A DNA stretch of 64,000 nt. Origin: Escherichia coli (GTDB lineage: Bacteria; Pseudomonadota; Gammaproteobacteria; Enterobacterales; Enterobacteriaceae). The notes below the pieces were generated by a model. The model ran no database searches. It worked only from the letters and a program-made list of their open reading frames with translations, and had not been told where the DNA came from. This document shows, in pieces, positions 1,338-33,126 of the stretch; the stretch's first letter is position 1; each line of letters starts with the position of its first letter. The stretch lies in assembly GCF_003334405.1 (NCBI RefSeq), contig NZ_QOWM01000003.1; one strand, written 5' to 3'. The translations under genes and the position numbers were made by a program.

Positions 1338-1379
1338 TGGCCTTAACCTGCCTGACCCCGCTACCGGCGGGGTTTTTTC
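1170..1379 (+). ncRNA. fliX: possible FliX sRNA derived from fliC 3' end (boundaries approximate)
   Basis: Established knowledge that a sigma28-dependent sRNA is processed from the fliC 3' region ending at its terminator; only the terminator is directly visible in the sequence. Confidence 0.25.
1356..1379 (+). terminator. rho-independent terminator of fliC
   Basis: CCCCG...CGGGG stem followed by TTTTTT, about 20 nt after the fliC stop. Confidence 0.7.
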
Positions 1380-1467
1380 TGCCCGCAATTTACCGGTAAC
1401 CCCCAAATAACCCCTCATTTCACCCACTAATCGTCCGATTAAAAACCCTGCAGAAACGGATAATCAT

Positions 1468-1475
1468 GCCGATAA
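1468..1475 (+). promoter_or_regulatory. sigma28-type -10 element upstream of fliA
   Basis: Exact GCCGATAA 26 nt upstream of the fliA GTG start; no clear TAAA at the expected -35 spacing, so the promoter call is partial. Confidence 0.3.
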
Positions 1476-1500
1476 CTCATATAACGCAGGGCTGTTTATC

Positions 1501-2220
1501 GTGAATTCACTCTATACCGCTGAAGGTGTAATGGATAAACACTCGCTGTGGCAGCGTTATGTCCCGCTGGTGCGTCACGAAGCATTGCGCCTGCAGGTTC
1601 GACTGCCCGCGAGCGTGGAACTTGACGATCTGCTACAGGCGGGCGGCATTGGGTTACTTAATGCCGTCGAACGCTATGACGCCCTACAAGGAACGGCATT
1701 TACAACTTACGCAGTGCAGCGTATCCGTGGCGCTATGCTGGATGAACTTCGCAGCCGTGACTGGGTGCCGCGCAGCGTGCGACGCAACGCGCGTGAAGTG
1801 GCACAGGCAATAGGGCAACTGGAGCAGGAACTTGGCCGCAACGCCACGGAAACTGAGGTAGCGGAACGTTTAGGGATCGATATTGCCGATTATCGCCAAA
1901 TGTTGCTCGACACCAATAACAGCCAGCTCTTCTCCTACGATGAGTGGCGCGAAGAGCACGGCGATAGCATCGAACTGGTTACTGATGATCATCAGCGAGA
2001 AAACCCGCTACAACAACTGCTGGACAGTAATCTGCGTCAGCGGGTGATGGAAGCCATCGAAACGTTGCCGGAGCGCGAAAAACTGGTATTAACCCTCTAT
2101 TACCAGGAAGAGCTGAATCTCAAAGAGATTGGCGCGGTGCTGGAGGTCGGGGAATCGCGGGTCAGTCAGTTACACAGCCAGGCTATTAAACGGTTACGCA
2201 CTAAACTGGGTAAGTTATAA
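1501..2220 (+). CDS. fliA: flagellar sigma factor sigma28 FliA (239 aa, GTG start)
   Basis: Translation MNSLYTAEGVMDKHSLWQRYVPLV... matches FliA over full length. Confidence 0.95.
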   Translation: MNSLYTAEGVMDKHSLWQRYVPLVRHEALRLQVRLPASVELDDLLQAGGIGLLNAVERYDALQGTAFTTYAVQRIRGAMLDELRSRDWVPRSVRRNAREVAQAIGQLEQELGRNATETEVAERLGIDIADYRQMLLDTNNSQLFSYDEWREEHGDSIELVTDDHQRENPLQQLLDSNLRQRVMEAIETLPEREKLVLTLYYQEELNLKEIGAVLEVGESRVSQLHSQAIKRLRTKLGKL

Positions 2221-2265
2221 CGTCAGTAAATGCCGCACTTTAACTTTGACTACCAGGAGTTCTTA

Positions 2266-2817
2266 ATGATGGTGCAGCACCTGAAAAGACGGCCATTAAG
2301 CCGCTATCTTAAAGACTTTAAACACAGCCAGACTCATTGCGCGCATTGCCGTAAATTACTCGATCGCATTACCCTCGTTCGCGACGGCAAAATAGTGAAT
2401 AAAATCGAGATTTCCCGCCTGGACGCGCTGCTTGATGAAAATGGCTGGCAAACGGAACAAAAATCATGGGCGGCATTGTGCCGATTTTGCGGTGATTTAC
2501 ATTGCAAAACGCAGAGTGATTTTTTCGATATTATCGGCTTTAAGCAATTTCTTTTTGAGCAAACTGAAATGAGCCCAGGTACGGTGCGTGAATATGTCGT
2601 TCGTTTGCGCCGTTTGGGGAATCATCTACACGAGCAAAATATTTCCCTCGATCCGCTGCAGGACGGTTTCCTTGATGAAATCCTCGCCCCGTGGCTGCCC
2701 ACCACCAGCACCAACAATTACCGCATCGCATTACGGAAGTATCAACACTATCAGCGTCAAACGTGTACCGGACTTGTGCAGAAATCCTCCAGCCTGCCTG
2801 CTTCTGATATATATTAA
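2266..2817 (+). CDS. fliZ: flagellar regulator FliZ (183 aa)
   Basis: Track ORF 2230-2817 is N-extended by 12 codons; recognised FliZ N-terminus MMVQHLKRR begins at 2266. Confidence 0.88.
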   Translation: MMVQHLKRRPLSRYLKDFKHSQTHCAHCRKLLDRITLVRDGKIVNKIEISRLDALLDENGWQTEQKSWAALCRFCGDLHCKTQSDFFDIIGFKQFLFEQTEMSPGTVREYVVRLRRLGNHLHEQNISLDPLQDGFLDEILAPWLPTTSTNNYRIALRKYQHYQRQTCTGLVQKSSSLPASDIY

Positions 2818-2904
2818 ATAAGAATAAGATGTAGCGGAGTTGTTTTTGTGTTTACAAACAATGGCTCTACACTGCAAACAGACATAACAACATTCGGGGT
2901 AAAT

Positions 2905-4796
<1,892 letters not shown>

Positions 4797-4810
4797 CTCC
4801 GGAAACGCTC

Positions 4811-5479
4811 ATGCAAGAAAGTATACAACTGGTTATTGATTCCTTGCCGTTCCTGCTGAAAGGGGCTGGGTATACGCTGCAACTCAGTATCGGCGGCATG
4901 TTTTTTGGCTTACTGCTCGGGTTTATTCTCGCGCTGATGCGCCTGTCGCCGATCTGGCCCGTGCGCTGGCTGGCGCGTTTTTATATCTCTATTTTTCGTG
5001 GTACGCCGCTCATCGCACAACTGTTTATGATTTATTACGGCCTGCCGCAGTTTGGTATCGAATTAGATCCCATTCCGTCAGCAATGATTGGTCTGTCGCT
5101 CAACACTGCCGCCTATGCTGCCGAAACGCTTCGCGCCGCCATTTCTTCTATTGATAAAGGTCAGTGGGAAGCAGCTGCCAGTATTGGTATGACGCCGTGG
5201 CAGACCATGCGTCGCGCGATTTTGCCACAGGCGGCGCGGGTGGCGTTGCCGCCGCTGTCGAACAGCTTTATCAGCCTGGTAAAAGATACGTCGCTGGCCG
5301 CGACAATCCAGGTGCCGGAGCTGTTCCGTCAAGCGCAGTTGATTACCTCGCGCACGCTGGAGGTGTTCACCATGTACCTGGCGGCTTCGCTCATCTACTG
5401 GATCATGGCGACAGTATTATCGACGTTGCAGAACCATTTTGAGAATCAACTTAATCGCCAGGAGAGAGAACCAAAATGA
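4811..5479 (+). CDS. tcyL: L-cystine ABC transporter permease TcyL (222 aa)
   Basis: Full-length match to TcyL/YecS; polar amino-acid ABC permease. Confidence 0.93.
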   Translation: MQESIQLVIDSLPFLLKGAGYTLQLSIGGMFFGLLLGFILALMRLSPIWPVRWLARFYISIFRGTPLIAQLFMIYYGLPQFGIELDPIPSAMIGLSLNTAAYAAETLRAAISSIDKGQWEAAASIGMTPWQTMRRAILPQAARVALPPLSNSFISLVKDTSLAATIQVPELFRQAQLITSRTLEVFTMYLAASLIYWIMATVLSTLQNHFENQLNRQEREPK

Positions 5480-6228
5480 GTGCCATTGAAGTTAAGAACC
5501 TGGTGAAAAAATTTCACGGTCAGACGGTGCTGCACGGTATCGACCTTGAGGTAAAGCCTGGCGAAGTGGTGGCAATTATCGGTCCGAGTGGTTCCGGCAA
5601 AACCACGTTGCTACGCAGCATAAATCTGCTGGAACAACCCGAAGCGGGAACGATCACCGTTGGCGATATCACTATTGATACTGCACGTTCATTAAGTCAG
5701 CAAAAATCGCTGATTCGCCAGTTGCGTCAGCACGTCGGGTTTGTCTTCCAGAACTTTAATTTGTTTCCGCATCGTACGGTGCTGGAAAACATTATTGAAG
5801 GGCCGGTGATCGTCAAAGGCGAACCGAAAGAAGAGGCCACGGCGCGCGCTCGCGAGCTGTTGGCGAAAGTTGGGCTGGCCGGTAAAGAAACCAGCTATCC
5901 ACGTCGTTTGTCTGGCGGTCAACAGCAACGTGTTGCGATTGCACGTGCGCTGGCAATGCGTCCTGAGGTGATTTTGTTTGACGAGCCAACGTCGGCGCTG
6001 GATCCAGAGCTGGTGGGCGAAGTCCTGAACACCATCCGTCAGCTGGCGCAGGAAAAGCGCACGATGGTGATTGTGACGCACGAAATGAGCTTTGCCCGGG
6101 ATGTTGCGGACCGGGCGATCTTTATGGACCAGGGGCGGATAGTCGAGCAGGGGGCCGCAAAAGCGTTATTTGCCGATCCCGAGCAGCCTCGCACCCGCCA
6201 GTTCCTCGAGAAGTTTCTGCTGCAATAA
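5476..6228 (+). CDS. tcyN: L-cystine ABC transporter ATPase TcyN (250 aa)
   Basis: Walker A GPSGSGKTT and signature LSGGQQQRV; 4-nt overlap with tcyL. Confidence 0.95.
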   Translation: MSAIEVKNLVKKFHGQTVLHGIDLEVKPGEVVAIIGPSGSGKTTLLRSINLLEQPEAGTITVGDITIDTARSLSQQKSLIRQLRQHVGFVFQNFNLFPHRTVLENIIEGPVIVKGEPKEEATARARELLAKVGLAGKETSYPRRLSGGQQQRVAIARALAMRPEVILFDEPTSALDPELVGEVLNTIRQLAQEKRTMVIVTHEMSFARDVADRAIFMDQGRIVEQGAAKALFADPEQPRTRQFLEKFLLQ

Positions 6229-6240
6229 TAAGAAAAAATC

Positions 6241-6267
6241 AGCCCCGACGATTCACCTGTCGGGGCT
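6241..6267 (+). terminator. stem-loop downstream of tcyN (possible terminator)
   Basis: 9-bp stem AGCCCCGAC/GTCGGGGCT; no U-tract on the + strand. Confidence 0.4.
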
Positions 6268-6457
6268 GGACGCCATTTCAAGCCTGATAAAACTGCTTAA
6301 CAAATCAGCATAACTCATTAATAACATAAGAGAATGCGATGGCTTGCAAAAGTAATTCATTGCCTGAATAATATAAATTATATATAAATCTTATTTATGT
6401 GATAGTTTGAATTATCATTATAAATGATACTCACTCTCAGGGGCGTTGCGGTTTACT

Positions 6458-7180
6458 ATGCAGGATAAGGATTTTTTCAGCTGGCGTCGCACGATGCTGT
6501 TGCGTTTTCAGAGGATGGAGGCCGCAGAAGAGGTCTACCATGAAATAGAGTTTCAGGCTCAGCAGCTGGAGTACGATTACTATTCGTTATGTGTTCGCCA
6601 CCCGGTACCATTCACGCGACCTAAAGTGGCTTTCTACACCAATTACCCTGAGGCGTGGGTTAGTTATTATCAGGCAAAAAACTTTCTCGCAATTGATCCG
6701 GTGCTGAACCCTGAAAACTTTAGTCAGGGCCATTTAATGTGGAATGATGACTTATTCAGCGAAGCACAGCCGTTATGGGAAGCCGCGCGCGCACATGGTT
6801 TACGCCGCGGTGTCACTCAGTATTTAATGCTGCCAAACCGGGCGCTGGGCTTTTTGTCCTTTTCCCGTAGCAGCGCGCGCGAAATACCCATTCTTAGTGA
6901 TGAACTGCAATTAAAAATGCAGTTACTGGTGCGCGAAAGTCTGATGGCTCTGATGCGTTTAAATGATGAAATAGTGATGACGCCAGAGATGAATTTCAGC
7001 AAGCGCGAAAAAGAAATTTTGAAATGGACGGCGGAAGGGAAGACATCAGCAGAGATAGCGATGATTTTGTCAATCTCTGAGAATACGGTCAATTTCCACC
7101 AGAAAAACATGCAGAAAAAAATTAATGCACCAAATAAGACGCAGGTTGCCTGTTACGCGGCCGCTACTGGCTTAATTTGA
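6458..7180 (+). CDS. sdiA: LuxR-type quorum-sensing regulator SdiA (240 aa)
   Basis: Recognised N-terminus MQDKDFFSWRR; C-terminal LuxR HTH; track ORF begins 4 codons upstream at a TTG. Confidence 0.93.
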   Translation: MQDKDFFSWRRTMLLRFQRMEAAEEVYHEIEFQAQQLEYDYYSLCVRHPVPFTRPKVAFYTNYPEAWVSYYQAKNFLAIDPVLNPENFSQGHLMWNDDLFSEAQPLWEAARAHGLRRGVTQYLMLPNRALGFLSFSRSSAREIPILSDELQLKMQLLVRESLMALMRLNDEIVMTPEMNFSKREKEILKWTAEGKTSAEIAMILSISENTVNFHQKNMQKKINAPNKTQVACYAAATGLI

Positions 7181-7208
7181 TCTCTTTTCTGTTCTGCGTG
7201 CCAGATGC

Positions 7209-7243
7209 AAAAACCGGCTGAAAGGCACGCTCTCAGCCGGTTT
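7209..7243. terminator. bidirectional terminator between convergent sdiA and yecF
   Basis: 8-bp stem CCGGCTGA/TCAGCCGG flanked by an A-run and a T-run. Confidence 0.7.
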
Positions 7244-7247
7244 TATA

Positions 7248-7472
7248 TTACTGACGGTAGGCTTGTTTAATTTGCTTAACCGTTTTGGAAAATACTGCAG
7301 CCTGGGTTTCGTCTTCGATCAGCGCAAGCTGTTTTTCCATCTTTAACATCACGCGGCCCGCGTCAGCTTGTCCCATCGCCTGCAGCATCAGCGTCAGCAT
7401 CGCTTTCAGGCAGGAGACTTCATTTGCCAGTTCTTGATTATTCTCGGCAGTAGAAAAATCAGGCGTACTCAT
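7248..7472 (-). CDS. yecF: DUF2594 protein YecF (74 aa)
   Basis: Translation [19 protein letters not shown]... matches YecF at the expected synteny position. Confidence 0.85.
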
Positions 7473-7930
7473 TTATTTTCCTCGTCATGTTGCAATGAAA
7501 ATTTGCGGTGAAAAATGTTAAGGCGGCGGAGTATACCATAAGCTTTGCTAAAAATAGCAGTGGTTGTTTTTTGAGCGTATCGTCAACGGTGCTATTAAAT
7601 GCGTTAATATAATGACCAATAAATATTTTTATCATGAATGTTTTTTGCCCGTATTGTTTGGGTTAATTAATGTTACATATTCAGCGGGCTGATTTTCATT
7701 TTTGCTGAATAAAGGTAATTTTTGTCACATTTCGTCGCAGGGCTTACTGTGAAACGATCCGGTCAGCCGTTGGTGACGGGCGTGACCATAACTGTGGACA
7801 ATCGAATTGACAAAAACGAGAGAAAAATCGAATACCCACCATTTTTAACGTTTCAAAGTTGCAATAAAAACCGCTAATATACTAATGACTAACTATCAGT
7901 AGCGTTATCCCTATTTCTGGAGATATTCCT

Positions 7931-8587
7931 TTGATCAACGTTCTACTTGTTGATGACCACGAACTGGTGCGCGCAGGGATACGACGCATTCTGGAAGATA
8001 TAAAGGGTATAAAAGTCGTCGGTGAGGCATCGTGCGGTGAAGACGCCGTTAAGTGGTGCCGGACAAATGCCGTTGACGTGGTGCTAATGGACATGAGTAT
8101 GCCGGGCATTGGCGGTCTTGAGGCGACGCGTAAAATCGCGCGTTCCACAGCTGATGTCAAAATCATCATGCTTACCGTCCATACAGAAAACCCTTTACCA
8201 GCGAAAGTCATGCAGGCCGGTGCTGCGGGCTACCTCAGCAAAGGCGCGGCTCCGCAGGAAGTCGTGAGTGCGATTCGTTCTGTCTATTCAGGGCAGCGTT
8301 ACATTGCTTCTGATATCGCTCAACAAATGGCGTTAAGCCAGATCGAACCAGAAAAAACAGAAAGCCCATTTGCCAGTTTGTCTGAACGTGAATTGCAGAT
8401 TATGCTGATGATCACCAAGGGCCAGAAGGTCAATGAGATCTCAGAACAGCTCAATCTCAGTCCGAAAACGGTGAACAGCTACCGCTATCGTATGTTCAGT
8501 AAACTAAACATTCATGGCGATGTTGAGCTGACTCACCTGGCAATTCGCCATGGTCTGTGTAATGCGGAGACATTATCAAGTCAGTGA
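7931..8587 (+). CDS. uvrY: response regulator UvrY (BarA/UvrY two-component system), 218 aa, TTG start
   Basis: Receiver domain [16 protein letters not shown] plus LuxR-type HTH; RBS GGAG upstream. Confidence 0.93.
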
Positions 8588-10416
8588 GTGATCAGTTTGA
8601 CGCAAAAGCGTTTTTAAAAACCGTAACCAGCCAGCCAGGCGTTTATCGCATGTACGATGCTGGTGGTACGGTTATCTATGTCGGCAAAGCGAAAGACCTG
8701 AAAAAACGGCTTTCCAGCTATTTCCGTAGCAACCTCGCTTCGCGCAAAACCGAAGCGCTGGTCGCCCAGATCCAGCAAATTGATGTAACGGTTACTCATA
8801 CAGAAACCGAAGCGCTGTTGCTGGAACACAACTACATCAAACTCTATCAGCCGCGTTACAACGTTTTACTACGCGATGATAAATCTTATCCCTTTATCTT
8901 CCTGAGTGGCGATACCCATCCGCGTCTGGCGATGCATCGTGGTGCGAAGCATGCTAAAGGTGAATATTTCGGCCCGTTCCCGAATGGCTATGCCGTACGT
9001 GAAACACTGGCGCTACTGCAAAAGATTTTCCCCATTCGCCAGTGCGAAAACAGTGTTTATCGCAATCGCTCGCGTCCGTGTCTGCAATATCAGATAGGAC
9101 GTTGTCTGGGGCCGTGCGTTGAAGGACTGGTGAGTGAAGAAGAATACGCTCAGCAGGTCGAGTATGTGCGCCTGTTTTTGTCTGGCAAAGATGATCAGGT
9201 GCTTACGCAACTGATTAGCCGTATGGAAACTGCCAGCCAGAATCTGGAGTTTGAAGAAGCTGCACGTATTCGCGACCAAATTCAGGCGGTGCGACGCGTC
9301 ACCGAAAAACAGTTTGTTTCCAATACCGGCGACGACCTTGACGTTATTGGTGTGGCGTTCGATGCGGGCATGGCTTGTGTCCACGTATTGTTCATTCGTC
9401 AGGGCAAAGTGCTCGGCAGCCGCAGCTATTTCCCGAAAGTGCCTGGCGGTACGGAACTGAGCGAGGTGGTGGAAACCTTCGTAGGTCAGTTCTATTTACA
9501 AGGCAGCCAGATGCGCACCTTACCGGGTGAGATCCTGCTCGATTTTAATCTTAGCGATAAAACGCTGCTCGCCGATTCCCTTTCAGAACTGGCGGGACGC
9601 AAGATTAATGTTCAAACCAAACCTCGCGGCGATAGGGCGCGTTATCTGAAACTCGCGCGCACCAATGCGGCGACGGCCTTAACCAGCAAACTTTCGCAGC
9701 AATCTACCGTTCACCAGCGACTGACCGCGCTTGCCAGCGTGTTGAAATTGCCGGAAGTGAAGCGGATGGAGTGCTTTGACATCAGCCATACCATGGGCGA
9801 ACAAACCGTCGCTTCCTGTGTGGTGTTTGATGCTAACGGCCCGCTGCGTGCGGAGTATCGGCGCTATAACATTACTGGCATCACGCCGGGCGATGATTAT
9901 GCGGCGATGAATCAGGTGCTGCGTCGGCGTTATGGTAAAGCCATTGACGACAGTAAGATCCCGGATGTGATCCTTATCGACGGCGGCAAAGGCCAGCTTG
10001 CGCAGGCGAAAAATGTCTTCGCCGAACTGGATGTCTCATGGGATAAAAATCATCCGCTGCTACTTGGCGTTGCCAAAGGAGCAGATCGTAAGGCTGGGCT
10101 GGAAACGCTGTTCTTTGAGCCGGAAGGTGAGGGATTTAGTTTGCCGCCAGATTCTCCCGCGCTGCATGTTATCCAGCATATTCGCGATGAATCACACGAT
10201 CACGCGATTGGCGGGCACCGTAAAAAACGGGCGAAGGTCAAAAATACCAGTTCCCTGGAAACCATTGAAGGCGTCGGGCCAAAACGTCGGCAAATGTTGT
10301 TGAAATATATGGGCGGTTTGCAAGGTTTACGTAACGCCAGCGTCGAGGAAATTGCAAAAGTGCCGGGTATTTCGCAAGGTCTGGCAGAAAAGATCTTCTG
10401 GTCGTTGAAACATTGA
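8584..10416 (+). CDS. uvrC: excinuclease ABC subunit C UvrC (610 aa)
   Basis: Full-length UvrC with GIY-YIG N-terminus; GTG start overlapping the uvrY stop by 4 nt. Confidence 0.95.
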
Positions 10417-10472
10417 TGTCTCTGTAGCAACATAGGGGTAATCTTACTGACAACAGATAGTTACCCGTCATT

Positions 10473-11021
10473 ATGCAATTTAATATCCCTACGTTGCTTA
10501 CACTGTTCCGTGTCATCCTTATCCCATTCTTTGTATTGGTCTTTTATCTGCCTGTCACCTGGTCGCCGTTTGCCGCCGCGCTCATTTTCTGCGTCGCGGC
10601 GGTGACTGACTGGTTTGATGGTTTTCTGGCACGCCGCTGGAACCAGAGTACCCGGTTTGGTGCTTTCCTTGACCCTGTCGCAGATAAAGTTCTCGTGGCT
10701 ATCGCCATGGTGCTGGTAACCGAGCATTATCACAGCTGGTGGGTGACCTTACCGGCGGCAACGATGATCGCCCGTGAAATTATTATTTCTGCGCTACGCG
10801 AATGGATGGCGGAGTTGGGTAAACGCAGTAGCGTGGCTGTCTCCTGGATTGGGAAAGTGAAAACTACGGCCCAGATGGTGGCGTTGGCCTGGCTGCTGTG
10901 GCGTCCGAACATTTGGGTTGAGTACGCCGGTATTGCACTTTTCTTTGTGGCTGCGGTACTGACTCTGTGGTCAATGTTGCAATATTTGAGCGCTGCGCGT
11001 GCAGATTTGCTTGATCAGTGA
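10473..11021 (+). CDS. pgsA: CDP-diacylglycerol--glycerol-3-phosphate 3-phosphatidyltransferase PgsA (182 aa)
   Basis: Translation [21 protein letters not shown]... matches PgsA. Confidence 0.95.
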
Positions 11022-11071
11022 TCGTTTCGGTGCAATTTTCAGCAAACGATCAAAAGTGGTGAAAAATATCG

Positions 11072-11099
11072 TTGACTCATCGCGCCAGGTAAGTAGAAT
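11072..11099 (+). promoter_or_regulatory. sigma70 promoter of the glyW-cysT-leuZ tRNA operon
   Basis: TTGACT(11072-11077)-N16-TAGAAT(11094-11099) with a GC-rich discriminator, about 70 nt upstream of tRNA-Gly. Confidence 0.6.
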
Positions 11100-11172
11100 G
11101 CAACGCATCGAACGGCGGCACTGATTGCCAGACGATAATAAAATCAAGTGATTAACTGATTGCTTGATGAAT

Positions 11173-11248
<76 letters not shown>

Positions 11249-11302
11249 GTTTAAAAGACATCGGCCTCAAGCGGATGTCTGGCTGAAAGGCCTGAAGAAT
11301 TT

Positions 11303-11376
11303 GGCGCGTTAACAAAGCGGTTATGTAGCGGATTGCAAATCCGTCTAGTCCGGTTCGACTCCGGAACGCGCCTCCA
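11303..11376 (+). tRNA. cysT: tRNA-Cys (anticodon GCA)
   Basis: 74-nt sequence GGCGCGTTAACAAAGCGG...GAACGCGCCTCCA with encoded CCA. Confidence 0.95.
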
Positions 11377-11388
11377 CTTTCTTCCCGA

Positions 11389-11475
11389 GCCCGGATGGTG
11401 GAATCGGTAGACACAAGGGATTTAAAATCCCTCGGCGTTCGCGCTGTGCGGGTTCAAGTCCCGCTCCGGGTACCA
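11389..11475 (+). tRNA. leuZ: tRNA-Leu (anticodon TAA), long variable arm
   Basis: 87-nt sequence GCCCGGATGGTGGAATCGGTAGACAC...CGCTCCGGGTACCA. Confidence 0.95.
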
Positions 11476-11517
11476 TGGGAAAGATAAGAATAAAATCAAA
11501 GCAATAAGCAGTGTCGT

Positions 11518-11542
11518 GAAACCACCTTCGGGTGGTTTTTTT
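11518..11542 (+). terminator. rho-independent terminator of the tRNA operon
   Basis: ACCACC-TTCG-GGTGGT hairpin followed by TTTTTTT. Confidence 0.75.
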
Positions 11543-11670
11543 GTGCCTGCAACTTGTCGTTACACCCTCCTTAATTTTTAATCACCGGCAAAGCCACTCA
11601 AAAAGTATCTCTGATACGGACCGGCATGTAAGATAGGTGCTGGCGAGTTGAGATCCACAAGGAAAAGCGT

Positions 11671-12336
11671 ATGAAAACGGGACCGTTAAACGAAAGTGAG
11701 TTGGAATGGCTGGACGATATTCTGACCAAATACAACACTGACCACGCCATCCTTGATGTGGCGGAGCTGGACGGTTTATTGACGGCGGTGTTGAGTTCTC
11801 CGCAAGAGATTGAACCGGCACAGTGGCTGGTTGCCGTGTGGGGTGGGGCTGACTATGTGCCGCGCTGGGCGTCTGAGAAAGAGATGACACGCTTTATGAA
11901 CCTGGCCTTTCAACATATGGCCGATACCGCAGAGCGTCTGAACGAATTCCCGGAGCAGTTTGAGCCGCTATTCGGCTTGCGAGAAGTTGATGGCAGCGAG
12001 CTGACGATTGTTGAGGAGTGGTGCTTTGGCTATATGCGGGGCGTGGCACTTTCTGACTGGTCAACATTGCCCGATTCGTTAAAACCAGCGCTGGAGGCGA
12101 TAGCGCTGCACGGTACTGAGGACAACTTCGAGCGGGTAGAGAAGATGTCGCCAGAAGCGTTTGAAGAGAGCGTAGATGCCATTCGACTGGCGGCGCTTGA
12201 TTTACATGCATACTGGATGGCGCATCCGCAGGAAAAAGCTGTTCAGCAACCGATCAAAGCAGAAGAGAAACCGGGGCGTAACGATCCTTGTCCGTGCGGC
12301 AGTGGTAAGAAATTTAAGCAGTGCTGCCTGCATTAA
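11671..12336 (+). CDS. yecA: UPF0149 protein YecA with C-terminal SecA-like metal-binding motif (221 aa)
   Basis: C-terminal [13 protein letters not shown] motif visible in translation; matches YecA. Confidence 0.9.
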
Positions 12337-12344
12337 GAAGTCAA

Positions 12345-12376
12345 ATTGGGTGTCAGCGTTAATTCTGGCACCCAAT
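12345..12376. terminator. hairpin between convergent yecA and tyrP (possible bidirectional terminator)
   Basis: 8-bp inverted repeat ATTGGGTG/CACCCAAT with a 16-nt loop; no clear U-tract. Confidence 0.35.
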
Positions 12377-12397
12377 AAGGAATTTGAGGCTATCTGA

Positions 12398-13609
12398 TCA
12401 CCCCACTTCTGGTAACAACCCTGCCGCAATCAAAAATTGCACGCCAATCACAGCAATACCACAGAGAAACACCACCACCAGCGCCGGACGACCACCTTTC
12501 ACCCGGTAACCCGCCTGAGGATTGTGCTTTCTGCTTTGCCAGGTCAATAGTGAAGGGATAATCAATGCCAGTACCGCCAGCGCCACACCGGCGTAACCCA
12601 GCGCCATCACAAATCCTCGTGGATAAAACAGTGCAAACGCCAACGGCGGCAGAAAGGTAATTGCACCAGTTTGCAATCGTCCACCAACGGTATTTGAACG
12701 CTGAAACAAATCAGCCAGATAATCAAATAAGCCTAACGCAACGCCGAGAAATGACGTGGCGAGGGCTAAATCAGCAAATAAATGCACTGCCAGCTCAACA
12801 TGCGGAGAGGCCACCATTTCGCGTAACGCCTGTAACAGCCCGTTTAATCCGGCATGATTAGCCAGCAATCCCATAAAGGTTGTTGAATCAATGCTGCCAA
12901 GCGTCGCCACCTGCCAGAAAATATATGCCACCAGGGGGATCGCACTACCGGTTATAAACACCCAGCGTAGCTTACGAACGTTGCCATCCATATAGCTGAC
13001 AATACTCGGCACGCTACCGTGAAAACCAAACGAGGTAAAAATCACCGGGATTGCGGACAGAGCCAGCCCCTGTTGCAACGGCAGGGTTAAAAGATTCACT
13101 TTGTGAATATGCGGTAGCAGCAATACCAGCATCACCACCAGAAAAATAATTTTGGCGCTGAACAGAAAACGGTTAAACAAATCGACCAGCGATGTCCCGA
13201 CACAAACCACGCCACCGGCAACAAAAGTGAACAACAGCACGCCAGCGGTTGCCGACATTGAAATACCTGTCCAGTCGCTGATGCTGGAGGCCAACAATTC
13301 ACCGGCACCGCTGATGTATGCCGCAGTCAGAGCATACATTAAGAACATCATACTGAAGCCCGTCAGCCACTGACCGTAGCGTCCCAGATAGCGTTTTGCC
13401 AGCGTGCCAAGACCGGTATCTGCCGGAACATGCTGGTACACCTCCAGCAGTAATAGCGCCGTGTAGCACATCAACGCCCAAAGCCCAATCAACAAGATTA
13501 ACGTAACGCTAAAACCAACACCGGCCGCAGCCAGCGGCATTGCCAGCATGCCTGCGCCAATTGTGGTTCCCGCCACGATAAAAACACTTCCCAGAGTTCT
13601 GTTTTTCAC
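12398..13609 (-). CDS. tyrP: tyrosine-specific transporter TyrP (403 aa)
   Basis: Full-length match to TyrP, multi-TM aromatic amino-acid permease. Confidence 0.95.
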
Positions 13610-13698
13610 GCTTTCTTCTGTCCTGACGATCTTTATGAGTGATATCTGCGGCGCAGGTTAAGGCATAACGGCTGCTTCGTCAAACCGACGTTACATAT

Positions 13699-13720
13699 AG
13701 TGTAAATATAAATGTACAAT
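13699..13720. promoter_or_regulatory. TyrR box in the tyrP promoter region
   Basis: TGTAAA-N6-TGTACA at 13701-13718 (consensus TGTAAA-N6-TTTACA), about 90 nt upstream of the tyrP start. Confidence 0.55.
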
Positions 13721-13798
13721 AAAAGCGTTTAGTTCTGCGCTGGCGCAAAGTCTTCATAAGCGGCAATCGCTACGCTAGGCTTTTTTTGAGGAGGAACG

Positions 13799-14038
13799 AT
13801 GGACTCTATTCACGGTCATGAAGTGTTAAATATGATGATTGAATCAGGCGAGCAATATACGCATGCCAGTCTGGAAGCAGCAATTAAAGCGCGTTTTGGT
13901 GAACAGGCACGTTTTCACACCTGCTCGGCAGAAGGGATGACTGCGGGAGAGCTGGTAGCGTTTCTGGCAGCAAAAGGCAAATTTATACCTTCAGAAGAAG
14001 GTTTTTCGACCGATCAGAGTAAGATTTGCCGTCACTGA
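13799..14038 (+). CDS. yecH: DUF2492 protein YecH (79 aa)
   Basis: Translation MDSIHGHEVLNMMIESGEQYTHASLEAAIKARFGEQARFHTCSAEG... matches YecH. Confidence 0.85.
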   Translation: MDSIHGHEVLNMMIESGEQYTHASLEAAIKARFGEQARFHTCSAEGMTAGELVAFLAAKGKFIPSEEGFSTDQSKICRH

Positions 14039-14043
14039 TTTGA

Positions 14044-14070
14044 AACGGCGGCAGAAAACCTGCCGCCTGA
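14044..14070. terminator. hairpin between convergent yecH and ftnA
   Basis: 7-bp GC-rich stem GGCGGCA/TGCCGCC with a 7-nt loop. Confidence 0.45.
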
Positions 14071-14075
14071 GAGCA

Positions 14076-14573
14076 TTAGTTTTGTGTGTCGAGGGTAGAG
14101 AGTTCTTTGTCGATAAAATACAGACCTTCGCCGCTTTTGCCTGCCAGGCTTAATTTATCAATAATCGATTTGAACAGTTTCTCTTCTTCATGCTGCTCAG
14201 AAACATACCATTGCAGGAAATTAAATGTTGGGTAGTCCTGATTGGTCATTGCAGCATGAGCCAGTTCGTTAATTTTCTGCGTGATTAATTGTTCGTGTTT
14301 ATAGGTTTCCTGGAATAATTCATCAAGTGAGGAATATTCAGCAAACGGAGATTCAACGGTATTAATACGCGGTAAATTGCCGGTATCAGTCAGGTAATCA
14401 AACAGACGCTGCATATGCGTCATCTCTTCCTGGGCGTGACGGCGCAGGAACGCGGCAGCACCTTCGAAGGTATGATAGCTGCACCAGGCGCTCATTTGCT
14501 GATAAAGCAGTGAAGAGTACAGTTCCAGGTTCATCTGCTCATTAAGTTTTTCAATCATTTCTGGTTTCAGCAT
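14076..14573 (-). CDS. ftnA: ferritin FtnA (165 aa)
   Basis: Recognised N-terminus [15 protein letters not shown]; track ORF extended 5 codons upstream. Confidence 0.93.
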
Positions 14574-14743
14574 GATAGTGCTCCACAAAGGTTATATTTG
14601 TTGCTGTGGCGTCACTATAATTTGTTATTTTATTATTTGCAAAAGGTAAAATATAAACTTCAATTATTAAAAATACGAATGGGAATAAAACGCATTACCG
14701 CTATTTCTTTAATCAGCGAAGATCCCCTCGCTGATTAAAATAT

Positions 14744-15067
14744 TTAGAGAAAGACAGGGAAGGCGGAATGATGGCACTGATATGACAAAGTGAATTCCGT
14801 ATTCAAACATAAGGAACCCGCAAAAAGGCTACAGTTGCCTACTGGCTGACCAAAGGGGACCGCGTGGGTATAGCCTTCCTGCTGGCATGCGCGATCGGCG
14901 ATCCCGCGACTGACATAACGATCGGTATGGGCATGCTGCAAAAAAGCCTGGTCATAAACTAACCGTACAATACCTGTTGCCGCGTCAACTTCGCTCACAT
15001 GGGCCTGGCGAGTAACCGTACACCCCGCCAGCGTTATTAATGAAAGAGTCAGAATCAGAAGTCTCAT
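14744..15067 (-). CDS. yecR: lipoprotein YecR (107 aa)
   Basis: Signal peptide with lipobox LAGC (MRLLILTLSLITLAGC); matches YecR. Confidence 0.85.
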   Translation of the reverse strand: MRLLILTLSLITLAGCTVTRQAHVSEVDAATGIVRLVYDQAFLQHAHTDRYVSRGIADRACQQEGYTHAVPFGQPVGNCSLFAGSLCLNTEFTLSYQCHHSAFPVFL

Positions 15068-15230
15068 GGTCCAGCCAGAAGAGTAAGAGAAAGCACTATT
15101 TTACGCGTTACAGTGCTGCGACAATGGCCGGAAAAGACGCCTGGCAGGCGCTATTTCTTGCCATCTGTAGGTGTCAGAAATAGGGGGCTGTTTTTTGATT
15201 ATCATTTTTATAACATTAAAGGGGTATTTA

Positions 15231-15246
15231 TGTGATTTGCATCACA
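15231..15246. promoter_or_regulatory. CRP binding site upstream of azuC
   Basis: Perfect palindromic TGTGA-TTTGCA-TCACA; a second CRP-like site TGTGA-N6-TCATA at 15261-15276. Confidence 0.65.
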
Positions 15247-15328
15247 TAAAGATTGATTTTTGTGATGGTTGTCATATTATAAGCGCAAAGACAATAACAC
15301 CTGTATAACAAATAGTCGGAGTGCCGCG

Positions 15329-15415
15329 ATGAAACTGCGCAAAATCCTGAAAAGTATGTTCAATAACTATTGCAAGACGTTCAAAGACGTACCGCCAGGC
15401 AATATGTTCCGATAA
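15329..15415 (+). CDS. azuC: small protein AzuC (28 aa)
   Basis: ATG with RBS GGAG; translation MKLRKILKSMFNNYCKTFKDVPPGNMFR; too short for the ORF track. Confidence 0.8.
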   Translation: MKLRKILKSMFNNYCKTFKDVPPGNMFR

Positions 15416-15444
15416 CAAAAAACCTGCTCCGGCAGGTTTTTTTG
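15416..15444 (+). terminator. rho-independent terminator of azuC
   Basis: ACCTGC-TCCG-GCAGGT hairpin followed by TTTTTTT. Confidence 0.75.
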
Positions 15445-15529
15445 TGTCCTGATGACGGTGGATGTGACTATCGCTGAAGATGTGAAGCCGCTACTATAAC
15501 GGCTTTCAAAATGCTATCAGGAGTTTACG

Positions 15530-15781
15530 ATGTCCCAGCCGCTGAATGCCGATCAGGAACTGGTTTCTGATGTGGTTGCTTGCCAGTTGGTTATCAAACA
15601 AATTCTGGATGTTCTCGATGTAATCGCGCCCGTTGAAGTTCGTGAAAAAATGTCCAGTCAGCTGAAGAATATCGACTTTACTAACCATCCCGCCGCCGCA
15701 GACCCGGTCACCATGCGGGCAATCCAAAAAGCCATCGCGCTTATTGAACTCAAGTTTACCCCACAGGGTGAATCCCATTAA
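15530..15781 (+). CDS. yecJ: DUF2766 protein YecJ (83 aa)
   Basis: Translation [24 protein letters not shown]... matches YecJ; RBS AGGAG upstream. Confidence 0.85.
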
Positions 15782-15784
15782 AAA

Positions 15785-15817
15785 AACCGCTGCTTCAAAC
15801 AGATGAGGCAGCGGTTT
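15785..15817. terminator. bidirectional terminator between convergent yecJ and ftnB
   Basis: 7-bp stem CCGCTGC/GCAGCGG flanked by an A-run and TTT. Confidence 0.5.
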
Positions 15818-15859
15818 CTCAAAACCTTCATCGGCGCAATGCATTAGCGCCGATGATGA

Positions 15860-16363
15860 TCAATGCAGCTGGTGTGACACGACATTCAGAACATGTTGGT
15901 CGGTCTGCACAGGGCACATACCCGCAAGTTTCGCACTGCGCACTTCATCAAGAATGGTTTGCAGCAACAGACCATCATGCTGCTGTTCTTTTTCCAGATC
16001 GCGCAGGAAATTGACGGTTGAATCATCATTCAGTTCTTTCGCTTCATCGGCTAACTGTGCCAACGTACTAGAACGTTGCTCGTATTCTTCCATCGTTTTT
16101 TGGAACAGTTCTTCCAGAGAGTTCAGTTTTTCACCGGGAACATCAATGGCTTTAACGATGGGGGTAGCGCCGACACTCTTCATAAAGTTAAACATGCGCA
16201 TCATTTGGGTCACATTACTCTGTGCCTGGGCGCGAAGGAAAGTGGCGGTGCCGTTCAGACTCTGTTCAGAACACCAGTTACTCAGGTGAAGGTAGAGATT
16301 GGATGCGTAAAACTCGCGGTTCATTTGAGAGTTGAGTTTGAGAAGCATTCCAGCGGTTGCCAT
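15860..16363 (-). CDS. ftnB: ferritin-like protein FtnB (167 aa)
   Basis: Translation [31 protein letters not shown]... matches FtnB. Confidence 0.93.
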
Positions 16364-29789: not shown

Positions 29790-29820
29790 CGAGATCAACT
29801 TGTTTTCAGGAAGGTGCCTT

Positions 29821-31479
29821 ATGATTAACCGTATCCGCGTAGTCACGCTGTTGGTAATGGTGCTGGGGGTATTCGCACTGTTACAGCTTATTTCCGGCAG
29901 TCTGTTTTTTTCTTCCCTTCACCATAGCCAGAAGAGCTTTGTGGTTTCCAATCAATTACGGGAACAGCAGGGCGAGCTGACGTCAACCTGGGATTTAATG
30001 CTGCAAACGCGCATTAACCTGAGTCGTTCAGCGGTACGGATGATGATGGATTCCTCCAATCAACAAAGTAACGCCAAAGTTGAATTGCTCGATAGCGCCA
30101 GGAAAACATTGGCGCAGGCAGCGACGCATTATAAAAAATTCAAAAGCATGGCACCGTTACCTGAAATGGTCGCTACCAGTCGTAATATTGATGAAAAATA
30201 TAAAAACTATTACACAGCGTTAACTGAACTGATTGATTATCTAGATTATGGCAATACTGGAGCTTATTTCGCTCAGCCAACCCAGGGAATGCAAAATGCA
30301 ATGGGCGAAGCGTTTGCTCAGTACGCCCTCAGCAGTGAAAAACTGTATCGCGATATCGTCACTGACAACGCAGATGATTACCGATTTGCCCAGTGGCAAC
30401 TGGCGGTTATCGCGCTGGTGGTATTGATTCTGCTGGTGGCGTGGTACGGCATTCGCCGTATGTTGCTTACTCCGCTGGCAAAAATTATTGCTCACATTCG
30501 CGAAATCGCCGGTGGTAACCTGGCGAATACCCTGACCATTGACGGGCGCAGTGAAATGGGCGACCTGGCGCAGAGCGTTTCACATATGCAACGCTCTTTG
30601 ACTGACACCGTCACTCATGTCCGCGAAGGTTCAGATGCCATCTATGCCGGTACCCGTGAAATTGCGGCGGGCAACACCGATCTTTCCTCCCGTACTGAAC
30701 AGCAGGCATCCGCGCTGGAAGAAACTGCCGCCAGCATGGAGCAGCTCACCGCGACAGTGAAGCAAAACGCCGATAACGCCCGCCAGGCCTCGCAACTGGC
30801 GCAAAGTGCCTCCGACACCGCCCAGCACGGCGGCAAAGTGGTGGATGGCGTAGTGAAAACGATGCATGAGATCGCCGATAGTTCGAAGAAAATTGCCGAC
30901 ATTATCAGCGTTATCGACGGTATTGCCTTCCAGACTAATATCCTCGCGCTGAATGCCGCGGTTGAAGCCGCGCGTGCGGGTGAACAGGGCCGTGGTTTTG
31001 CCGTGGTGGCGGGTGAAGTGCGTAATCTTGCCAGTCGCAGCGCCCAGGCGGCAAAAGAGATCAAAGCCCTCATTGAAGACTCCGTCTCACGCGTTGATAC
31101 CGGTTCGGTGCTGGTCGAAAGCGCCGGGGAAACAATGAACAATATCGTCAATGCTGTCACTCGCGTGACTGACATTATGGGCGAGATTGCATCGGCATCG
31201 GATGAACAGAGCCGTGGCATCGATCAAGTCGCATTGGCGGTTTCGGAAATGGATCGCGTCACGCAACAGAACGCATCGCTGGTGCAGGAATCAGCTGCCG
31301 CCGCCGCTGCGCTGGAAGAACAGGCGAGTCGTTTAACGCAAGCAGTTTCCGCGTTCCGTCTGGCAGCCAGCCCACTCACCAATAAACCGCAAACACCATC
31401 CCGTCCTGCCAGTGAGCAACCACCGGCTCAGCCACGACTGCGAATTGCTGAACAAGATCCAAACTGGGAAACATTTTGA
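29821..31479 (+). CDS. tar: methyl-accepting chemotaxis protein II Tar (553 aa)
   Basis: Recognised N-terminus [21 protein letters not shown]; C-terminal NWETF pentapeptide; track ORF N-extended to 29800. Confidence 0.95.
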
Positions 31480-31524
31480 CGAGTATTTACTAACGCGGTC
31501 ATTGCCGCCTGATGGGGAGCGTTG

Positions 31525-33126
31525 ATGTTTAATCGTATTCGAATTTCGACCACGCTGTTTTTAATTTTGATTCTCTGCGGGATCTTGCAGATTGGCAGTA
31601 ACGGCATGTCTTTTTGGGCATTTCGCGACGATTTGCAACGACTGAATCAGGTCGAGCAGAGCAATCAGCAACGTGCGGCATTAGCGCAAACTCGGGCGGT
31701 AATGTTACAGGCCAGTACCGCGCTGAACAAAGCGGGCACTCTGACGGCACTTAGCTATCCGGCGGATGACATTAAAACGTTGATGACGACGGCGCGCGCC
31801 AGTCTGACGCAATCCACCACGCTGTTTAAAAGTTTTATGGCGATGACTGCGGGCAACGAGCACGTCAGGGGATTGCAAAAAGAGACGGAGAAAAGTTTTG
31901 CCCGCTGGCACAACGATCTCGAACATCAGGCGACCTGGCTTGAAAGTAATCAACTTTCGGATTTCCTCACTGCGCCGGTGCAGGGATCACAGAATGCGTT
32001 TGACGTTAACTTTGAGGCCTGGCAGCTGGAGATCAACCATGTGCTGGAAGCCGCCAGTGCGCAAAGCCAGCGTAACTATCAGATTTCGGCACTGGTGTTT
32101 ATCAGCATGATTATTGTTGCGGCGATCTACATCAGCAGTGCGCTGTGGTGGACGCGCAAGATGATTGTTCAACCACTGGCCATTATCGGTAGCCATTTTG
32201 ACAGCATTGCTGCGGGTAATCTGGCGCGTCCGATTGCGGTATATGGTCGTAATGAGATCACCGCCATTTTTGCCAGTCTGAAGACCATGCAGCAGGCTTT
32301 GCGTGGGACGGTAAGTGATGTGCGTAAGGGAAGCCAGGAGATGCACATTGGTATCGCGGAGATTGTCGCAGGCAATAACGATCTCTCAAGTCGTACCGAA
32401 CAGCAGGCGGCATCGCTGGCACAAACGGCCGCCAGTATGGAGCAATTAACCGCCACGGTAGGGCAAAACGCCGATAACGCACGACAGGCGTCGGAACTGG
32501 CAAAAAATGCCGCGACAACGGCGCAGGCGGGCGGTGTTCAGGTCAGTACCATGACTCACACCATGCAGGAGATCGCCACCAGCTCGCAAAAAATTGGCGA
32601 CATTATCAGCGTTATCGACGGAATTGCTTTCCAGACCAATATTCTGGCCCTGAATGCGGCAGTGGAAGCGGCTCGCGCCGGAGAGCAGGGGCGTGGTTTT
32701 GCGGTAGTGGCAGGTGAAGTGCGCAATCTTGCCAGCCGTAGCGCGCAGGCAGCAAAAGAGATCAAAGGGCTGATCGAAGAGTCAGTCAATCGTGTCCAGC
32801 AGGGTTCGAAACTGGTGAATAACGCCGCCGCGACCATGATCGATATTGTCAGTTCGGTGACCCGCGTGAACGACATTATGGGAGAAATTGCCTCTGCGTC
32901 GGAAGAACAACAGCGGGGGATTGAGCAGGTTGCACAGGCTGTCAGCCAGATGGATCAGGTGACTCAGCAGAACGCCTCGCTGGTAGAAGAAGCGGCGGTG
33001 GCAACGGAACAACTGGCGAATCAGGCCGACCATCTTTCGTCGCGTGTGGCGGTATTTACCCTTGAAGAACATGAAGTAGCACGACATGAGTCGGTGCAGT
33101 TACAAATTGCGCCAGTGGTATCCTGA
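31525..33126 (+). CDS. tap: methyl-accepting chemotaxis protein IV Tap (533 aa)
   Basis: Recognised N-terminus MFNRIRISTTLFLIL; track ORF begins one codon upstream at a TTG. Confidence 0.95.
   Translation: MFNRIRISTTLFLILILCGILQIGSNGMSFWAFRDDLQRLNQVEQSNQQRAALAQTRAVMLQASTALNKAGTLTALSYPADDIKTLMTTARASLTQSTTLFKSFMAMTAGNEHVRGLQKETEKSFARWHNDLEHQATWLESNQLSDFLTAPVQGSQNAFDVNFEAWQLEINHVLEAASAQSQRNYQISALVFISMIIVAAIYISSALWWTRKMIVQPLAIIGSHFDSIAAGNLARPIAVYGRNEITAIFASLKTMQQALRGTVSDVRKGSQEMHIGIAEIVAGNNDLSSRTEQQAASLAQTAASMEQLTATVGQNADNARQASELAKNAATTAQAGGVQVSTMTHTMQEIATSSQKIGDIISVIDGIAFQTNILALNAAVEAARAGEQGRGFAVVAGEVRNLASRSAQAAKEIKGLIEESVNRVQQGSKLVNNAAATMIDIVSSVTRVNDIMGEIASASEEQQRGIEQVAQAVSQMDQVTQQNASLVEEAAVATEQLANQADHLSSRVAVFTLEEHEVARHESVQLQIAPVVS

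Follow-up and report, generated by a model that had tools for sequence, protein, structure and literature searches.

The neighbouring chemoreceptor genes tar and tap of Escherichia coli share an old, diverged (homeologous) direct repeat, which extends over about 630-700 nt with 70-77% identity, and a clean 1701-bp deletion leaving a single gene with a Tar N-terminus and a Tap C-terminus was identified in three of 5,389 complete genomes. Very probably, the whole of this is explained by old paralogy, selection at the protein level and identical runs left over by chance, within which a rare exchange deletes 1701 bp. The paralogy of Tar and Tap as such has been textbook knowledge since the 1980s, and for genome annotation the finding is an ordinary one; the tar/tap repeat carries no real assembly risk.

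The tar-tap locus and its direct repeat

Within the window (the whole stretch of 64,000 nucleotides that was analysed), tar occupies positions 29821-31479 and tap positions 31525-33126, both on the + strand. The open reading frames and their translations, NCBIfam and Pfam matches and the RefSeq annotation (for tar that of the orthologous K-12 locus) identify tar as the gene of the aspartate/maltose chemoreceptor (MCP-II, 552 aa) and tap as that of the dipeptide chemoreceptor (MCP-IV, 533 aa). The gene names given in the initial annotation are therefore correct, with RefSeq naming the same genes at the same place and both proteins passing the cut-off of their NCBIfam equivalog (Tar: NF011622, 1192.9 bits over residues 1-552, cut-off 900; Tap: NF007309, 1181.9 bits over residues 1-533, cut-off 903). 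Both are methyl-accepting chemotaxis proteins with a Tar-type four-helix-bundle sensor and possess the same TarH-HAMP-MCPsignal architecture, as documented by Pfam E-values of 2.9e-41, 5.8e-11 and 5e-62 for Tar and of 9e-42, 2.6e-09 and 5.7e-56 for Tap, in this order. The C-termini differ, as Tar ends in EQDPNWETF and Tap in QIAPVVS, i.e., the NWETF tail is absent from Tap. This C-terminal pentapeptide is the tether for CheR and CheB and separates the high- from the low-abundance receptor class.

The HAMP and signalling domains of both genes align in register with a constant offset of 1701 nt, a number divisible by three. The homologous block, which comprises the methylation helices and the hairpin tip of the signalling domain, locates to positions 30658-31283 in tar and 32359-32984 in tap and was returned by blastn as one single HSP (74.4% identity, 634 columns, E = 2e-112); a repeat search gave two families at the spacing of 1701 nt. 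The direct repeats about 1.7 kb apart that had been read from the sequence earlier do exist, lying inside tar and tap on the + strand in both cases and 1701 nt apart, while their description as long near-identical stretches was overstated: identity amounts to 70.5% over the 701 nt for which this was claimed (30630-31330), to 77% over 300 nt, to 84% over the best 200 nt and to 92% over the best 50 nt, it never exceeds 85% over 100 nt, and megablast of tar against tap gave zero HSPs. In the self-comparison the diagonal is real, with an in-register identity of 0.70-0.77 as compared to a mean of 0.28 and a maximum of 0.36 at other in-frame offsets, yet the value of 70.5% sits right at the level of about 70% which had been named beforehand as the refutation threshold for the repeat.

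Only three in-register exact runs of 15 nt or more were found. The longest has a length of 24 nt (tar 30897-30920, tap 32598-32621, + strand) and includes the previously reported 23-nt run GACATTATCAGCGTTATCGACGG, which is exact at 30898-30920 and 32599-32621 with 0 chance matches expected and had thus been recorded one nucleotide short. It is followed by runs of 18 nt (tar 30762-30779, tap 32463-32480, + strand) and 16 nt (tar 31051-31066, tap 32752-32767, + strand). A match of chance or composition between genes of separate ancestry would have nothing but the modest overall identity in its favour and can be discarded altogether, given the expectation of 0 run matches, the HSP E-value, the off-diagonal identity of 0.28, the shared Pfam architecture and a protein identity of 74% over 231 residues. 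Likewise, a recent segmental duplication or near-identical repeat, for which about 90% identity or more over hundreds of bases was demanded, was rejected at the observed 70.5-84%.

Protein conservation and the question of gene conversion

The similarity between tar and tap stems mostly from protein conservation. At about residues 369-414 the two proteins are 100% identical, with a third-codon-position identity of just 0.40-0.53, and only 40-60% of the third codon positions match. When compared to a null in which codons are redrawn, identical amino acids use the same codon more frequently (0.51 observed, 0.37 expected), total nucleotide identity is higher (70.7% as compared to 65.1% +/- 1.2) and the 24-nt run marginally exceeds its expected length (P = 0.04). 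A part of the similarity at the DNA level hence lies beyond this simple model, whereby other MCP pairs show an equal excess: same-codon values of 0.41-0.53 are common to all MCP pairs, including those of genes that lie far apart.

Taken on their own, these three deviations from the codon-redraw null would suit concerted evolution, i.e., an ongoing gene conversion which homogenises the adjacent copies and thereby yields the identical runs, and gene conversion had indeed been proposed in the initial annotation. This explanation is however very improbable, as the same-codon excess is found in every MCP pair and as the signalling domains of the non-adjacent pair tar-tsr are more alike (77.3% identity, longest run 28 nt) than those of tar-tap (70.7%, 24 nt). 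Adjacency is without effect on the similarity, because the distant tsr is closer to tar than the adjoining tap is. The conversion test proper considered four sequences, namely tar and tap of the window and of one divergent Escherichia locus with 91.45% nucleotide identity, which was the sole locus with a Tap sensor domain returned by the cross-species scan, and tsr/trg served as an added control. Here, 134 sites were of the ortholog type, one was of the same-genome (conversion) type and one was a cross pattern; tar and tap differ at 203 and 196 sites within genomes and at 199 and 200 sites between genomes, i.e., the within-genome distances equal those between genomes. In the divergent lineage, these identical runs have not been retained, and its own runs occupy other positions. 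Gene conversion is unsupported, because 134 ortholog-pattern sites stand against a single conversion-like one, and concerted evolution after the split of the two Escherichia lineages is largely refuted, the comparison covering one divergent lineage.

Protein conservation being the preferred and very probable reading, tar and tap are old tandem paralogs of the tar-tap-cheRBYZ operon, in which purifying selection on the protein keeps the HAMP and signalling domains alike, while the synonymous sites have drifted almost to saturation. The reason for this constraint would be that Tar and Tap both dock to one CheA/CheW/CheR/CheB machinery. The runs of 24, 18 and 16 nt then represent chance remnants at sites where both genes happen to encode a shared amino acid by the same codon.

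Hybrid genes in natural isolates

The 5,389 complete genomes were screened with a query built to detect both tar-tap flanks 1701 nt closer to each other. The three genomes found, all from wild isolates from frog and pigs, are ET474 and PEC389, carrying hybrid A, and ETEC4088, carrying hybrid B. In each of them the informative sites follow tar first and then, after one single switch, tap; the switch falls into the 24-nt run in ET474 and PEC389 and into the 18-nt run in ETEC4088, whereas no natural crossover was seen in the 16-nt run. Assuming uniform breakpoints, crossovers in just these runs have a probability of P ~0.001-0.004. The suggestion that the repeat is a substrate for unequal recombination gains support from the exact 1701-bp deletion in three complete genomes, two of which have their crossover inside the very run that had been pointed out and the third in the second-longest one. 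The joints locate to about Tar residues 315-321 and 360-368, both are in frame and both hybrids end in APVVS like Tap does. The hybrids of ET474 and PEC389 may go back to one single event, and hybrid A occurs on at least two flank haplotypes.

Across NCBI, ENA and Logan assemblies the two hybrid proteins were identified on 71 contigs and 28 contigs, respectively, corresponding to 140 and 58 index blocks, and the gene context is always cheW-hybrid-cheR. Read mis-assembly, against which the initial annotation had warned, would turn these database entries into collapsed assemblies, and as the shared 24-nt word recurs 1.7 kb apart, k-mers of 21 or below would in fact join the two copies. Such an origin is nevertheless exceedingly improbable: shared words never exceed 24 nt and identity stays at or below 85% over 100 nt, the hybrids are present in chromosome-level assemblies from three laboratories as well as in the independently built Logan and ENA assemblies, there are two distinct, clean and in-frame junctions, and hybrid A is not confined to one flank haplotype. 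A repeat capable of collapsing an assembly, taken as one with a shared word of at least 31 or with an identity that confuses long reads, was rejected on the same two values. Judged from these sequence data, the hybrids appear to be real genes rather than assembly artefacts.

With 1049 and 1004 bits, both hybrids still pass the Tar equivalog cut-off of 900, which is why they are filed as ordinary receptors, RefSeq and database annotation naming them plain "tar". As a consequence, chemoreceptor surveys that count gene names miss a loss of Tap of the hybrid type and mis-score Tar as intact. Natural tar-tap fusions are not the subject of any of the 'tar-tap' papers found, as far as titles and abstracts tell. 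A more far-reaching reading is that the hybrid alleles arose at least twice, at the two longest identical runs, persist in lineages and reshape the E. coli receptor set in a recurrent, possibly adaptive and perhaps so far undescribed manner, by which Tap could be lost in a third way next to the deletion in phylogroup B2 and point decay; as a whole, we regard this as rather unlikely. If true, dipeptide taxis would be gone in such lineages and their aspartate receptor, being devoid of NWETF, would need help to adapt.

Proposed mechanism and earlier hybrids

Shen and Huang reportedly determined, in 1986, a minimal efficient processing segment of 23-27 bp. The longest identical tract shared by tar and tap has 24 nt, followed by 18 and 16 nt, and these lengths lie at or below the minimal identical segment of bacteria. 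The latter was given as at most 30 bp in a review of the work of Shen and Huang 1986, which also describes that exchanges between diverged sequences are edited by mismatch repair (PMC8918686). A rare exchange begun in one of the runs would lead to the exact deletion of 1701 bp and to one in-frame gene, since the copies share orientation and reading register and are 1701 nt apart. From Tar the resulting hybrid receives the sensor, the transmembrane helices, the HAMP domain and the first methylation helix, from Tap the hairpin tip, the second methylation helix and a tail devoid of NWETF, and cheR-cheZ remain downstream of it. Two routes may be considered, namely (i) a RecA-dependent exchange at the lower bound of the minimal identical segment, which would be opposed by mismatch repair, and (ii) a RecA-independent slipped misalignment, which would be equally possible. 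For hybrid B, whose tract of 18 nt falls short of the classical minimal identical segment, the RecA-dependent route is not established. As to phenotype, the hybrid receptor should sense aspartate and maltose, dipeptide taxis should be lost and adaptation should depend on Tsr.

The deletions resemble non-allelic homologous recombination between diverged direct repeats in the direct orientation of the copies, the exact-register deletion and the position of the junctions in the longest tracts; unlike in this system, the tracts used, of 24 and 18 nt, do not exceed the threshold classically given for bacteria. The natural hybrids provide a small illustration, taken from a natural population, of the dependence on identity length, in which the short identical runs of a diverged repeat predict the sites of natural fusion.

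Tar-tap hybrids have been known from the laboratory since the 1980s. Slocum, Halden and Parkinson (J Bacteriol 169:2938) are said to have reported, in 1987, spontaneous deletions by recombination between the 3' portions in which tar and tap are homologous, whereby the N-terminus of Tar became joined to the C-terminus of Tap. Substrate, type of product (an in-frame Tar-N/Tap-C gene with a 1701-bp deletion) and proposed mechanism are the same for the natural hybrids. The hybrids of 1987 reportedly came, however, from laboratory K-12, while those described here come from wild isolates and many public assemblies, with their junctions mapped to the 24- and 18-nt runs. Engineered Tar-Tap and Tap-Tar chimeras were reportedly found to be functional by Weerasuriya, Schneider and Manson in 1998 (J Bacteriol); the chimera of Tar sensor and Tap cytoplasmic part is said to sense aspartate while being a poor generator of clockwise signal, Tap being without the NWETF tail that tethers CheR. 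Natural hybrids and engineered chimeras have in common that a Tar sensing module is combined with signalling parts of Tap and that NWETF is lost. The joints of 1998 were reportedly placed in the linker after TM2, whereas the natural ones lie deeper, as a consequence of which the Tar HAMP domain and first methylation helix are retained.

Tap loss in phylogroup B2 and the reciprocal product

Loss of Tap has been described for phylogroup B2 and uropathogenic E. coli (Lane et al. 2006; Borziak et al. 2013, summarised in PMC12623472). It results from an out-of-frame deletion of 1372 bp within tap, running between the copies of GAATCAGG at 31644-31651 and 33018-33025; tar stays intact, and of tap about 127 nt remain at the 5' end and about 100 nt at the 3' end. 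About 1,100 genomes showed 62% coverage, and the assumption that these represent tar x tap crossovers was rejected by junction mapping. The B2 loss and the hybrids concern the same locus, and dipeptide taxis, which the B2 loss removes, should be lost in the hybrids too, but the B2 loss used an 8-nt microhomology inside tap and left the tar/tap repeat unused. As the widespread B2 loss went through this intra-tap microhomology, the tar/tap repeat contributes little to the loss of receptors in E. coli.

For the reciprocal product, i.e., a duplication with the order tar, tap/tar hybrid, tap, the data give indirect bounds only, coverage being blind to the order of pieces. The 5' region of tap was found at 5,383 places in 5,381 records, and the tar TM2 query gave the same two extra places, two on plasmid records; the extra tap/tar places fit copies of the whole region better than a 1701-bp duplication. 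Both proteins predicted for the reciprocal product were absent from about 15 billion sequences in an exact-match look-up, which allelic variants would escape.

Strain background

The strain itself is a natural E. coli isolate with a K-12-like che region. Nucleotide identity to K-12 amounts to 99.9% in the tar-tap region, and gene set, order, strand and spacing are all alike, while the window differs from K-12 in its divergent fliC end and by 1-2% over the first 16 kb. The Tar protein of the window is one Val shorter than that of K-12, with one GTG codon missing in TM2 (ALVVVLIL in K-12, ALVVLIL here). This 3-nt deletion has 0 occurrences among 5,385 complete genomes, whereas the exact protein encoded by the allele was found on public contigs, which excludes an artefact unique to the window and identifies the deletion as a real, rare allele.

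The tar and tap genes and their repeat

The ORF list holds two long reading frames on the + strand of the window (29800-31479 and 31522-33126) which, taken from their ATG codons, correspond to tar (29821-31479, 552 aa), encoding the aspartate/maltose chemoreceptor, and tap (31525-33126, 533 aa), encoding the dipeptide chemoreceptor. At 99.9% identity, the region matches the E. coli K-12 motAB-cheAW / tar-tap-cheRBYZ locus, where RefSeq annotates the same genes, and both products exceed the cut-offs of their NCBIfam equivalog models (Tar, 1193 bits versus 900; Tap, 1182 bits versus 903). Pfam assigns the TarH-HAMP-MCPsignal architecture to both, with the NWETF motif being found at the C-terminal end of Tar and lacking from Tap. 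The homology and tandem arrangement of the two receptors as well as spontaneous laboratory tar-tap hybrids, reportedly described by Slocum et al. in 1987, have long been known, hence the repeat as such is an already known feature. Solely the circulation of hybrids in wild E. coli, hidden by annotation, is possibly new; a literature search, with key genomic surveys lying outside its reach, found no paper on such hybrids.

The initial annotation had described long near-identical stretches shared by the signalling domains, among them a 23-nt run at 30898-30920 and 32599-32621. This 23-mer was confirmed to occur exactly twice, at these positions, with no copy being expected by chance. Both copies align gap-free, the offset being 1701 nt throughout, whereby identity amounts to 70.5% over 30630-31330 (tar coordinates), 74.4% in a single blastn HSP (30658-31283 versus 32359-32984, E = 2e-112), 77% over tar 30859-31158, 84% in the best 200 nt and 92% in the best 50 nt, compared with a mean of 0.28 and a maximum of 0.36 at other in-frame offsets. 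The longest exact in-register run comprises 24 nt (30897-30920 in tar), followed by runs of 18 nt (30762-30779) and 16 nt (31051-31066), all remaining ones being 11 nt or shorter, and megablast of tar against tap reported no match. Considering this identity profile, the missing megablast match and the few exact runs, the repeat is real, though diverged; "near-identical" was thus overstated, and 70.5% over 30630-31330 sits on the limit of about 70% over the domain below which it was to count as refuted.

Codon-level alignment revealed that near the hairpin tip the amino acids of Tar and Tap are 100% identical with only 40-53% of third codon positions agreeing, which documents that conservation of the protein underlies the similarity. 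When codons were redrawn from local usage with both protein sequences kept, nucleotide identity was 65.1 +/- 1.2% and the mean longest run 15 nt, as compared to the observed 70.7% and 24 nt (P = 0.04 for a run of 23 or more). The shared-codon fraction is modestly above expectation (0.51 versus 0.37), but this excess extends beyond the adjacent pair, as values of 0.41-0.53 were obtained across all six pairs of tar, tap and the distant K-12 paralogs tsr and trg. With tsr (K-12 locus L006, 3658-5313), tar 30630-31330 shares 77.3% signalling-domain identity and a 28-nt run, both exceeding the tar-tap values, which explains the median of 3 megablast places per genome for the region. A tar-tsr exchange would result in megabase rearrangements, not in the loss of 1.7 kb.

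Gene conversion

Gene conversion between the copies, as also proposed initially, was assessed against a single divergent Escherichia locus (L008, from a scan of genome contigs; 91.45% identity over 9.8 kb). Within 693 aligned signalling-domain sites of the window and L008, 134 unite the two tar copies and the two tap copies, with one site grouping by genome and one being crossed. Likewise, tar and tap differ within the genomes (203 and 196 sites) as much as between them (199 and 200), and only 15 nt of the 24-nt run remain intact in L008, a different 25-nt run being present elsewhere. For practical purposes these data exclude conversion in the time after the split of the two lineages, to which the result applies. 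Given the site patterns, the equal distances and the displaced runs, the identical runs look like lineage-specific accidents of synonymous drift.

Natural tar-tap fusions

Fusions were searched for with a query joining the 5' 580 nt of tar, the 3' tail of tap and the 5' end of cheR, whose halves merge into one place only if they lie at most 1040 nt apart, a distance attained solely by the 1701-bp deletion. Three of 5,389 genomes qualified, each place spanning 2042 nt: ET474 (frog, China), PEC389 (pig, Korea) and ETEC4088 (pig, Belgium). In each, the cheW-cheR interval holds a single 1608-nt gene, in which all sites informative against K-12 tar and tap are tar-type up to one switch and tap-type thereafter. 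The switch interval of ET474 and PEC389, whose loci do not differ over 4 kb (hybrid A), is exactly the 24-nt run, and that of ETEC4088 (hybrid B), showing 62 flank differences from ET474, is the 18-nt run. Assuming a uniform distribution of breakpoints over the homology, the probability of two events hitting the two longest runs would be P ~0.001-0.004. The unequal recombination anticipated by the initial annotation is hence borne out by natural fusions. A duplication with a Tap-N/Tar-C gene, as the reciprocal product, did not turn up: about 15 billion sequences hold no exact match to its predicted proteins. A second tap 5' copy occurs in at most two records, and a tar TM2 query returned these two extra places again, pointing to copies of the whole region and not to the reciprocal duplication.

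Collapse of tar and tap by the assembler, the third possibility raised initially, is implausible, because the longest word common to both genes is 24 nt. Furthermore, the hybrid A and B proteins were found on 71 and 28 contigs of NCBI, ENA and Logan assemblies and are indexed in 140 and 58 assembly-collection blocks, the order always being cheW-hybrid-cheR, and hybrid A is accompanied by two or more flank haplotypes (19 differences within 7.6 kb). Both still pass the Tar equivalog cut-off of 900 (1049 and 1004 bits) and are therefore annotated simply as tar.

Other receptor losses at the locus

Coverage of the region is below 80% in 1,107 of 5,426 complete genomes, and in the spread listing about 1,100 of the 5,426 (among them Nissle and 536) reach 62% coverage and retain a remnant of tap. 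These B2 genomes were considered as tar x tap events and rejected, as junction mapping in Nissle revealed a 1372-bp out-of-frame deletion inside tap which does not use the tar/tap repeat. It lies between copies of GAATCAGG (31644-31651 and 33018-33025; extended as GAATCAGG(T/C)CGA, 31644-31655 and 33018-33029), spares tar and leaves short 5' and 3' tap stubs; it corresponds to the loss of Tap already known from B2 strains (PMC12623472). In the Nissle derivative EcN_Sk (NZ_CP172017.1, L002 622-2283), Tar is identical to K-12 Tar (WP_001297437.1) and the tar region matches the window at 99.8% identity, other B2 genomes showing about 98.2%, which hints at import of a K-12-like segment by recombination. 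In DS26-1 (NZ_CP035879.1, 63870-65226), IS1A resides inside tar, the remnant being annotated as 'Tar ligand binding domain-containing protein'; this insertion represents a further route to receptor loss at the tar locus.

Mechanism and predicted phenotype

The data show a direct repeat whose diverged copies share their reading register, and which undergoes rare exact-register deletions (about 0.06% of complete genomes) with junctions in the longest identical tracts. Initiation would need a short, perfectly identical block, the minimal identical segment in bacteria being at most 30 bp (PMC8918686), and extension into the 25-30% diverged flanks would be opposed by mismatch repair. Together, both assumptions would explain the rarity of the fusions and the positions of their junctions. 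RecA-independent slipped misalignment would account for the deletions equally well, given how short the junctions of hybrid B (18 nt) and of the B2 deletion (8 nt) are.

The hybrids are predicted to retain aspartate and maltose sensing, to have lost dipeptide taxis and, lacking the NWETF tail, to rely on Tsr for adaptation. This prediction derives from established receptor biology and from functional chimeras reportedly described by Weerasuriya et al. in 1998 and Slocum et al. in 1987. In one hybrid A carrier (GCA_907172595.1, L011 4627-5486), a 1-nt deletion splits cheR into 210-aa and 89-aa ORFs, hence chemotactic adaptation may be disappearing entirely in one or more hybrid lineages.

The window strain

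The window derives from a natural strain, not K-12; it is 100% identical over 10 kb to a contig of run ERR1948962 and 99.995% identical to GCA_024592625.1. Compared with K-12 it is a mosaic. Its first 16,000 nt differ by 1-2% from K-12 MG1655 and carry a different fliC; about 210 differences fall within 1356-16000 and about 15 within the remaining 48 kb, suggesting that a recombination boundary lies at about 15-16 kb, close to ftnA/yecR. At the fliC end (1-1340), the match to MG1655 is only partial (88%), indicative of a different H type.

At 30415-30423 (tar codons 199-201) the window has one GTG/TGG triplet fewer than K-12 (GCGCTGGTGGTGGTATTG -> GCGCTGGTGGTATTG), so that one Val of the Val200-202 (VVV) run in transmembrane helix 2 (TM2) is gone and Tar comprises 552 aa; a shift of the register into HAMP is to be expected from this. 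Among the 5,385 complete E. coli genomes with this segment, none has the allele. The exact window Tar (P0017) is found on about 8-12 public contigs, including a 21.6-kb locus only 99.42% identical to the window (L015), and this deletion is also seen in a second Tar background, Y131H (P0008), suggesting recurrent triplet slippage. In the closest public relative (GCA_024592625.1, L014; no mismatch and a single 1-nt gap over 21.66 kb), this indel splits tap (11705-13305, corresponding to about 31525-33126 of the window) into 93-aa and 429-aa ORFs, and tap is thus decaying in this ΔVal-Tar lineage.
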